A DNA stretch of 64,000 nt, from the sequence record PP554575. One strand, given 5' to 3'. Made by a program: the position numbers and the translations under genes. Positions 43,196 to 43,774 of the stretch are shown here, piece by piece; position 1 is the first letter of the stretch; each line of letters starts with the position of its first letter. This DNA comes from Escherichia phage PMBT16. The notes under the pieces are model-generated. The model searched no databases and was not told the origin of the DNA. It worked only from the letters and a program-made list of their open reading frames with translations.

Positions 43196-43774
43196 ATGAA
43201 ATGCAAACGTTGTGGAGAGGACAAGGAGGCCTCCGACTTCTACACCAGTAACAAATCAACGTGCAAAGAGTGTTGCAAGAAGGCCAGTAGGGAGGCTGAC
43301 CAGTTTTCCCACAACTCTTCAGAAAAAGGTGTAATACGCGTGCTGTACAAGGCTCAAAAGTGTAACAGCAAGCAAAGAGGTCACCCTCCTCCGACTTACA
43401 CCAAAAAAGAGTTTAAGGAGTGGCTATACCTGAACGGTTACAAAGAGTTGTATGACCAGTGGGTAGCCAGCGGATACGACAAAAGGAAAAAGCCTTCTTG
43501 TGACAGGATAGATGATTTCAAAGGATACTCTTTTGATAATATCCGTTTAACGACTTGGGGAGAAAATAAAGACAAGCAGACAGAGGATATTCTGTTACAT
43601 AGAAGCACCAGTGGTAGACGGTGTAAAAATGTAAGGAGGCTGGACATGAATGGCAACGTTCTTAAAGAATGGGTATCCCACAATTCTTGCCGAAGAGAAA
43701 CAGGGATATGTGTTGATTACTACATTCATGAAAAAATTCCAGCTCCCGATGGATACCTCTATGAATACTTCTAA
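43196..43774 (+). CDS. Zinc-ribbon protein with degenerate HNH_3-like motif (homing-endonuclease-like)
   Basis: N-terminal CKRCGEDK ... CKECC; central DRIDDFKGYSFDNIRLTTWGEN resembles the HNH_3 core DHID..NN..NLR..T..EN with His replaced by Arg. Confidence 0.4.
   Translation: MKCKRCGEDKEASDFYTSNKSTCKECCKKASREADQFSHNSSEKGVIRVLYKAQKCNSKQRGHPPPTYTKKEFKEWLYLNGYKELYDQWVASGYDKRKKPSCDRIDDFKGYSFDNIRLTTWGENKDKQTEDILLHRSTSGRRCKNVRRLDMNGNVLKEWVSHNSCRRETGICVDYYIHEKIPAPDGYLYEYF

Follow-up and report, generated by a model that had tools for sequence, protein, structure and literature searches.

PacI has been described as an active ββα-metal enzyme that carries the residue set D92, R93, Y100 and N113 (PMC5714182, PMC4081073). 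The enzyme is said to lack the general-base His, the role of which is taken over by a Tyr in a loop, and to hold a single metal ion by means of Asp and Asn (PMC5714182, PMC4081073, PMC3384342). PacI-type enzymes constitute "group 20" in the classification of His-Me finger nucleases by Jablonska et al. 2017, and the members of this group are mostly viral, giant viruses included (PMC5714182). The active site of this branch would consist of a metal-binding Asp (or Glu) followed by Arg, a Tyr in the loop between the two strands that substitutes for His, and a helix Asn that completes the metal site. Here we analysed 64,000 nucleotides (nt) of Escherichia phage PMBT16 (sequence record PP554575; this whole stretch is referred to as the window), in which two open reading frames (ORFs) carry a motif of this kind. 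The ORF at 43196-43774 on the plus strand encodes a protein of 192 amino acids (aa), below called P1, and the ORF at 19820-20863 on the minus strand encodes a protein listed with 347 aa, below called P2. Near-identical counterparts of both proteins were found in rV5-like E. coli myoviruses (Vequintavirus: slur16, slur12, inoa, Murica and FFH2). The explanation that we favour, with a probability of roughly 75%, is that both proteins bear a PacI-type motif, that P1 is a homing endonuclease and that P2 is a conserved, non-mobile relative of the T4 protein Srd. P1 and P2 are thus additional members of known families, P1 with regard to the PacI-type active site and P2 with regard to the Srd family.

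The closest described systems differ from the two proteins in several respects. PacI (PDB 3LDY/3M7K) shares with P1 a ββα-metal core with Asp-Arg, a Gly-Tyr in the loop and a helix Asn, as well as an N-terminal CxxC…CxxC zinc site and the preceding helical "A-K-x-R-G…F-T" region and, like both P1 and P2, it is covered by no Pfam model and falls in a mostly viral group. However, PacI is a homodimeric type II enzyme of 142 aa with two Cys4 sites and an 8-base-pair (bp) palindromic target, whereas P1 is without the second zinc site and has an extra NUMOD-like DNA-binding domain, which is the architecture of a homing endonuclease. P2 deviates from PacI in that the metal-binding Asp is replaced by Glu, that the N-terminal zinc ribbon is absent and that the module is present a second time in degenerate form. 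I-HmuI (PDB 1U3E; Bacillus phage SPO1, HNH_3/NUMOD) is a phage homing enzyme and the second-best fold match of P1, and in both proteins a ββα-metal nuclease is followed by a NUMOD-like helix-turn-helix tail. I-HmuI has the canonical general base (D74-H75), is encoded in an intron and has a NUMOD4 region at its N-terminus, whereas P1 has D-R and the loop Tyr, a zinc ribbon, a free-standing gene and no match to Pfam HNH_3. In lactococcal Skunavirus, free-standing PacI-like HNH genes, which occupy a single fixed position in some but not all of a set of otherwise similar genomes, have been interpreted as homing endonucleases (PMC12724721). These genes, which we liken to P1 from their description, belong to another phage group, host and insertion context and are rare (2/268; PMC12724721). 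Finally, the N-terminal 135 aa of P2 can be aligned with T4 Srd (gene srd, NP_049634), the two share PHROG families, and Srd proteins of T4-like phages are among the fold matches of P2 in BFVD. P2 is 100 aa longer, with an acidic linker and a degenerate repeat of the module, whereas the C-terminal half of Srd is unrelated. The T4 protein is reported to bind the N-terminal half of RNase E and to stimulate the decay of host RNA (PMC13232886), and such stimulation of RNase E is known only for T4 Srd.

Two related motifs with Arg in place of His

The motif of P1, DRIDDFKGYSFDNIRLTTWGEN, extends over aa 103-124 (nt 43502-43567) and that of P2, ERIDDEGPYAVDNCCVVGLRCN, over aa 100-121 (nt 20501-20566), in agreement with a preliminary description of this DNA that had reported RID-type motifs in both genes. 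The pattern [DE]R.[DN].{2,6}Y.{3}N.{6,12}N occurred exactly two times in the six-frame translation of the window, once in P1 and once in P2, as compared with 0.02 occurrences per shuffled sequence. Pairwise similarity between the two proteins was weak (BLASTP, 16 aa, expectation value (E) 0.005). Alignment of the P1 family with the P2 family using hhalign gave E 3.7e-6 and a probability of 87% over 105 columns, with DRIDD..Y of P1 in register with ERIDD..Y of P2. When the 480 ORFs of the window were searched with hidden Markov models (HMMs) of the two families, each model matched only the other protein (E 3.5e-4 and 2.6e-3), and three PHROG families (phrog_1035, phrog_3322 and phrog_3118) were common to the matches of P1 and P2. 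Taken as evidence from sequence comparison, the profile alignment, the reciprocal HMM matches and the common PHROG families indicate that the two modules are homologous.

The same description had regarded the modules as HNH_3-like, with Arg at the position of the first catalytic His. The substitution was confirmed by the P1-family profile, in which D103-R104 were aligned with D74-H75 of I-HmuI (1u3e, E 0.0016). The likeness to HNH_3 is approximate, since no Pfam HNH model was matched and, among solved structures, PacI is the closest and I-HmuI the second closest. Scans of P1 and P2 against Pfam gave no match to HNH_3, any other HNH family or Endonuclease_7, even at E up to 10, and scans of both proteins against NCBIfam gave nothing relevant. 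Similarly, Pfam HNH_3 (PF13392) had no match among 32 homologues of P1 or 39 P2/Srd-like proteins, and these 39 proteins were without a match to any Pfam HNH model. The comparison with HNH_3 and NUMOD models that had been suggested as a check was therefore negative for the core and positive only for the NUMOD-like tail, and for the tail only in homologues.

PacI-type residues in P1

When P1 was compared with the PDB using phmmer, PacI was the best sequence match, and the alignment covered both the zinc ribbon and the core (C…DRSDSFEGYSPQNARLACFICN in PacI and C…DRIDDFKGYSFDNIRLTTWGEN in P1). In an alignment of 23 P1-family members with PacI, the sole invariant columns were D103, R104, Y111 and N124, which correspond to D92, R93, Y100 and N113 of PacI, respectively. 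Besides I-HmuI, the P1-family profile also matched PacI in the PDB (E 0.0068). A Foldseek search of the PDB with the predicted structure of P1 ranked PacI first (3ldy_A, E 8.3e-4, probability 1.00) and I-HmuI second. The AlphaFold2 (AF2) model of P1 had a predicted local distance difference test (pLDDT) score of 92.9 and contained a strand at 100-104, a loop that holds the Tyr, a strand at 116-120 and a helix at 121-134, which is the ββα layout. The motif (D103, R104, D106, Y111, N115 and N124) is thus located within a predicted ββα-metal core (43493..43597, plus strand), as judged from the AF2 secondary structure, the Foldseek match to PacI and the conservation of residues.

For an exhaustive search of relatives, a P1-family profile was used that included the zinc ribbon and the core and left out the DNA-binding tail, and the matches were counted as cluster representatives at 50% identity. 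The numbers of clusters found were 1,053 at E<=1e-30, 4,343 at E<=1e-10 and 20,491 at E<=1e-3. Among the best 149 representatives of the family, D103, R104 and Y111 were each present in 149/149 and N124 in 147/149, and His was found at the Arg104 position in none of these 149. Since substitutions in these relatives of P1 are absent at Asp-Arg and the loop Tyr and rare at the helix Asn, we read the Arg as a family hallmark that is under strong constraint and not as a lesion caused by decay. Both modules show the hallmarks of the PacI-type clade (a ββα fold, (D/E)-R without a general-base His, a loop Tyr and a helix Asn), and on these features P1 and P2 are placed in this histidine-less clade of the His-Me finger (HNH) superfamily. 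By analogy with what has been published on PacI, Tyr111 of P1 would have a catalytic role.

The preliminary description had offered two options for these modules, a variant nuclease family or inactivated homing-endonuclease derivatives that are retained as DNA-binding regulators, and it is the first of these that agrees with the results. If P1 were a defunct HNH protein that persists as a regulator with sequence-specific DNA binding, the absence of the canonical general-base His and the presence of a NUMOD-like DNA-binding domain would both be accounted for. However, the conservation of Asp, Arg, Tyr and Asn described above is a pattern unlike that of a decayed site, and PacI is an example of an active enzyme with these very residues (PMC5714182, PMC4081073). 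In addition, the P1 gene is dispensable and patchily distributed (present in 49/117 related records and truncated in phage V18; see below), as would be expected of a selfish nuclease gene rather than of a regulator, and the recoding that accompanies it is limited to the insertion junction. A dead regulator is thus a very unlikely identity for P1, and the notion of an inactivated HNH domain is not supported for this protein, whereas P2 may or may not be inactivated.

The usual labels of P1 in the databases are "endonuclease VII" and "putative homing endonuclease". Under the former, which is the label of most GenBank records and also the name of phrog_1035, P1 would be a Holliday-junction resolvase, and T4 endonuclease VII is indeed also a His-Me finger protein with zinc. 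However, P1 matched neither Pfam Endonuclease_7 (PF02945) nor any other Pfam model at E up to 10, and T4 endonuclease VII was absent both from the PDB sequence matches and from the Foldseek top 50 of P1. The gene is furthermore missing in more than half of the close relatives and can therefore not be an essential resolvase. Since the label "endonuclease VII" (T4 gp49) was without sequence or fold support it was rejected for P1, and a resolvase function is extremely improbable.

Some metagenome relatives, exemplified by P0081 (532 aa) and P0082 (303 aa), were observed to contain two to four tandem modules of zinc ribbon plus PacI-type core per polypeptide. The first module copy of P0082 is without the DR…Y signature (SITKID…QY), which echoes the pair of one intact and one degenerate module in P2.

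The P1 gene as a cassette at one locus

The P1 ORF (43196..43774, plus strand) matched phrog_1035 with E 4.5e-34 and encodes, in addition to the core, two further domains. At the N-terminus there is a Cys4 zinc ribbon (C3, C6, C23 and C26; 43202..43273, plus strand), as had been recognized from the sequence earlier, in which each Cys is kept in 146-147/149 relatives and which is aligned with the first CxxC...CxxC of PacI. At the C-terminus, about aa 144-192 (43625..43771, plus strand), a NUMOD-like DNA-binding domain is predicted from the Pfam matches of homologues and from the profile alignment with I-HmuI. In the C-terminal 50 aa of the P1 family, PF22083 (I-HmuI_NUMOD-like) was matched in 12/32 homologues and NUMOD1 in 7/32, and the profile alignment extended through residues 74-171 of I-HmuI, with the C-terminal domain included. 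P1 therefore combines a nuclease core of PacI type with a modular DNA-binding domain (an I-HmuI_NUMOD-like/NUMOD1 tail), which is what is expected for a homing endonuclease. More distant homologues of P1 (32-49% identity) showed a patchy distribution over unrelated phage types, namely N4-like podoviruses, Vibrio phages and phages of 46-48 kilobases (kb).

The distribution of the gene in close relatives was determined with megablast using positions 42300-44700 of the window as the query. Among the 117 related records matched, the P1 gene was covered in 49. Most of the records without P1 were matched in two pieces with a span of 1814 nt, as compared with 2401 nt in the window, which corresponds to a clean gap of 587 bp between flanks that are >90% identical. 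Occupied and empty states were both found within Vequintavirus murica (HeinrichReichert occupied and JLBYU08 empty). The P1 gene thus shows presence/absence polymorphism at one locus among close relatives, as homing genes do, and the homing-associated insertion polymorphism that the preliminary description had proposed to look for was found.

The segment of 587 bp that is missing from relatives without the homing endonuclease gene is located at 43188..43774 (plus strand) and consists of an 8-nt spacer and the P1 ORF, as determined from the comparison of spans and from an alignment with phage JeffSchatz. The spacer and the stop codon upstream of it together supply a GAGG ribosome-binding site (43186-43189, plus strand). 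In the alignment with the empty allele, the cassette separates the terminator of the upstream gene from its stop codon. This intrinsic terminator (43790..43821, plus strand), with a GC-rich stem of 9 bp followed by a T run, is common to the upstream gene and the cassette, and in the empty alleles it is kept directly after the stop codon of the upstream gene. The upstream host gene itself (41961..43187, plus strand; phrog_4477), an ORF with its 3' end adjoining the insertion, is a "putative SSB" according to one annotator. Searches of Pfam and the PDB with this SSB-like protein gave no match, and its identity as an SSB is putative, based on that annotator's label and on the C-terminal tail of the protein.

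The junctions were compared in 13 rV5-like loci, six of which were empty and seven occupied (four with the 192-aa type and three with a 207-aa variant), and the insertion site was the same across all of them. In 6/6 empty alleles the upstream gene ended with TAC G(C/T)C TTT GAT GAT GAC AT(A/C/T) CC(A/G/T) TT(C/T) TAA, which encodes …Y(A/V)FDDDIPF*. In 4/4 alleles of the 192-aa type it ended with …YEFDDSIPF*, with 8-10 nucleotide changes within 28 nt. In 3/3 alleles of the 207-aa variant the stop codon was lost, with the result that the upstream protein is 15 residues longer and its gene overlaps the start of the endonuclease. All seven occupied alleles thus differed from the empty ones within the 28 nt that end the upstream gene, and elsewhere (860 nt upstream and 915 nt downstream) there were zero positions that separated occupied from empty alleles in the 13 loci. 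The recoded 28 nt of the window (…Y EFDDSIPF*; 43160..43187, plus strand) are a candidate for a disrupted target site, and an alteration of the carrier allele at a putative target adjoining the gene is a further property expected of a homing gene. Finally, the P1 gene of phage V18 (locus L012, NC_041937 111793-114151) is truncated at the 5' end by 42 nt, with loss of the start codon and the first CxxC. The remainder has 95.6% protein identity, and this copy looks like a decaying one.

Based on the sporadic presence at one site, the recoding limited to the junction and the presence of decaying copies, we consider a free-standing homing endonuclease to be the best interpretation of P1, for which we infer cleavage activity. 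The protein would be translated from the GAGG site that overlaps the upstream stop codon and would cut the cassette-less genomes of co-infecting relatives where the upstream gene ends or close to that point, the putative cut site in the empty allele being near …TACGCCTTTGATGATGACATCCCATTCTAA…. Repair by recombination would subsequently introduce the cassette along with the 28 recoded nt, and the recoded nt would protect the carrier from cleavage.

P1 might instead serve mainly as a weapon between phages (marker exclusion or restriction) that cuts relatives at sites away from its own gene. PacI is a restriction enzyme, viral homologues of PacI have been proposed to be viral "restrictases" (PMC5714182), and phage HNH genes have been found to cause exclusion of related phages (PMC12724721), all of which would fit such a function. 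However, the recoding is located exactly at the insertion junction, and this is the same site in the 13 rV5-like loci, indicating that the target adjoins the gene. We therefore find it unlikely that action at distant sites is the main function of P1, and it should be added that the weapon and homing models are not mutually exclusive.

In the 207-aa variant (loci L003 rV5, L010 JEP1 and L011 VB-EcoM-WM), the appended APVGLQYGKSRIHAL buries the C-terminal tip of the upstream protein. In cassette-less phages this tip is …AFDDDIPF, which we take to be the same tip as that of E. coli SSB. Given that the tip is altered or buried in carriers, the cassette may have a cost for its host gene or may alter the partner binding of that gene.

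P2 as a conserved relative of Srd

P2 (19820..20863, minus strand) matched phrog_3118 with E 2.2e-111 and the Srd PHROGs phrog_4592 (E 4.4e-15) and phrog_1400 (E 2.7e-10). The ORF as listed starts with TTG and has 347 aa, and given that the homologues in the databases have 346 aa, this suggests that the true start is the ATG one codon downstream. The 212 phage records that contain P2 come from phages of Escherichia, Klebsiella, Salmonella, Aeromonas, Cronobacter and Erwinia, and the gene, which is full-length in nearly all of them, is conserved and non-mobile. In the databases it is labelled "anti-sigma factor" or "HNH endonuclease", and some homologues have been designated "type II restriction endonuclease" by automatic annotation.

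The PacI-type module of P2 is N-terminal (aa 28-135; 20459..20782, minus strand) and has the motif E100, R101, D103, Y108, N112 and N121; its assignment is based on conservation, the AF2 model and a broad profile. In 14 homologues of P2, with identity down to 38%, E100, R101, Y108, N112 and N121 were invariant. The N-terminal domain of the AF2 model (pLDDT about 90) contained the ββα elements at 97-101, 113-117 and 118-128. A profile of P2-type and Srd N-terminal domains retrieved 62 proteins, in which the residue at the metal-ligand position was D in 46 and E in 13. In these broader relatives R was found in 58/59, Y in 59/59 and the two Asn in 59/59 and 57/58, respectively. A broad profile built from 39 of the 62 relatives, P2 included, matched residues 28-126 of PacI with E 3.8e-6.

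The relationship to Srd was also apparent from a BLASTP match between residues 30-165 of P2 and residues 4-133 of T4 Srd (E 9e-8), with Srd carrying the same motif, LSLERFDNNVGYIKGN…YN, and the matches of the P2 model in BFVD included Srd or "anti-sigma factor" proteins of T4-like phages. The P2 model was also observed to match giant-virus proteins in BFVD (E 1e-5 to 3e-3), from Fadolivirus, Tupanvirus, Mimivirus LCMiAC02 and Klosneuvirus, the last of these labelled "divergent HNH endonuclease", in agreement with the description of the PacI group as mostly viral, with giant viruses included (PMC5714182).

The remainder of P2 consists of an acidic linker (aa 187-243; 20135..20305, minus strand), which is predicted to be disordered (pLDDT below 50) and varies in length between homologues, and of what appears to be a C-terminal second copy of the module (aa 248-347; 19823..20122, minus strand) that is degenerate, its sequence LLVTDWNKGFTKGNFMVVS being without the E/R/Y set. 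Residues 271-317 of P2 matched residues 30-80 of T4 Srd (BLASTP, E 0.001), a segment of Srd that is also matched by the N-terminal module. Furthermore, in the AF2 model the C-terminal domain has helix, helix, strand, strand and helix, which is the order of the N-terminal domain. A direct hhalign comparison of the N-terminal and C-terminal domains of P2 was not significant (E 0.045, probability 1%). From the BLASTP match to Srd and the predicted order of secondary structure elements, a duplication of the module in P2 is moderately supported.

By analogy with Srd, P2 would most likely act early on host nucleic-acid metabolism, as Srd does via RNase E. A non-catalytic scaffold ("anti-sigma factor" or RNase E adaptor), with the residues E-R-Y-N-N being used for folding or binding only, would agree with the reported effect of T4 Srd on RNase E and with P2 being a conserved non-mobile core gene with a C-terminal copy that has no site. 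However, E100, R101, Y108, N112 and N121 are unchanged even in homologues with as little as 38% identity, and almost every member of the wider family has R, Y and both Asn, a degree of conservation that exceeds the usual needs of a fold alone. With this evidence on the two sides, we consider the chances of a purely non-catalytic P2 to be about even. Srd and P2 bear the labels "anti-sigma factor" or "sigma decoy", and in experiments Srd is known solely as an activator of RNase E. Given the strict conservation of the Glu-Arg…Asp…Tyr…Asn…Asn set, Srd and P2 could themselves be catalytically competent PacI-type nucleases, a suggestion that we regard as tentative and rather doubtful. If it were correct, Srd-family proteins could contribute as nucleases to the accelerated decay of host nucleic acids with which they have been credited. 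Among the papers searched, none was found that ties Srd to the HNH/His-Me fold, and some automatic annotations of P2 homologues hint at such a tie.

Several results weigh against the explanation of both genes given at the outset. For P1, the Foldseek TM-scores with PacI are low (0.33/0.44), which is due to a different arrangement of domains, and the second Cys4 zinc site of PacI is not present. The residues of P1 at the pre-core CxxC and the in-core C…C of PacI are non-Cys, with the exception of the variable C102, and the presence of two Cys4 sites is probably peculiar to PacI rather than general in the clade. The assignment of the 28-nt stretch as the target of P1 derives solely from the comparison of alleles at 13 loci. 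For P2, the narrow family profile matched no nuclease in the PDB, and a Foldseek search of the PDB gave no match at E<=1e-3 (E 0.26 for PacI). The top seven fold matches of P2 in the PDB were all HNH domains, each of them weak (E 0.07-0.26). P2 also has Glu where PacI has the metal-binding Asp, which at the same time favours a non-catalytic scaffold, and the activity of T4 Srd reported in PMC13232886 (citing Qi 2015) is the binding and stimulation of RNase E and not that of a nuclease.

Implications for annotation and neighbouring genes

These findings suggest that the Arg-for-His motif should not be taken as an inactivating mutation and that the widespread labels "endonuclease VII" and "anti-sigma factor" on these genes are poorly founded. 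Given that the P1 family comprises >4,000 clusters (50% identity, E<=1e-10) that are without a Pfam model, many phage genes are likely to be mislabelled. The rV5-like phages constitute a natural system for asking whether tyrosine-dependent ββα-metal enzymes of PacI type work in homing: their alleles may be occupied, empty or decaying, the cassette exists in two variants, and isolates are available in the BASEL collection. Similarly, the link between the Srd family and a nuclease fold in which all catalytic-type residues are retained provides a testable hypothesis for the early remodelling of host RNA or DNA metabolism by phages.

Sixteen GenBank records of "Campylobacter phage" (MG0656xx; C. 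jejuni host, 135-143 kb, unannotated) were about 97% identical to E. coli rV5-like phages across the locus compared, and the host label of these records looks doubtful. The neighbour of P2 at 18326-19807 of the window (minus strand) encodes a protein of 493 aa with a DUF2201_N putative metallopeptidase domain (HEVGH) and a DUF2201 VWA-like domain, and the label "HNH endonuclease" that it receives from phrog_1314 is probably a mislabel. Finally, the ORF at 44932-45489 (plus strand, 185 aa) had a partial match to the Macro domain (PF01661, E 6.5e-6) that covered residues 55-86 only.

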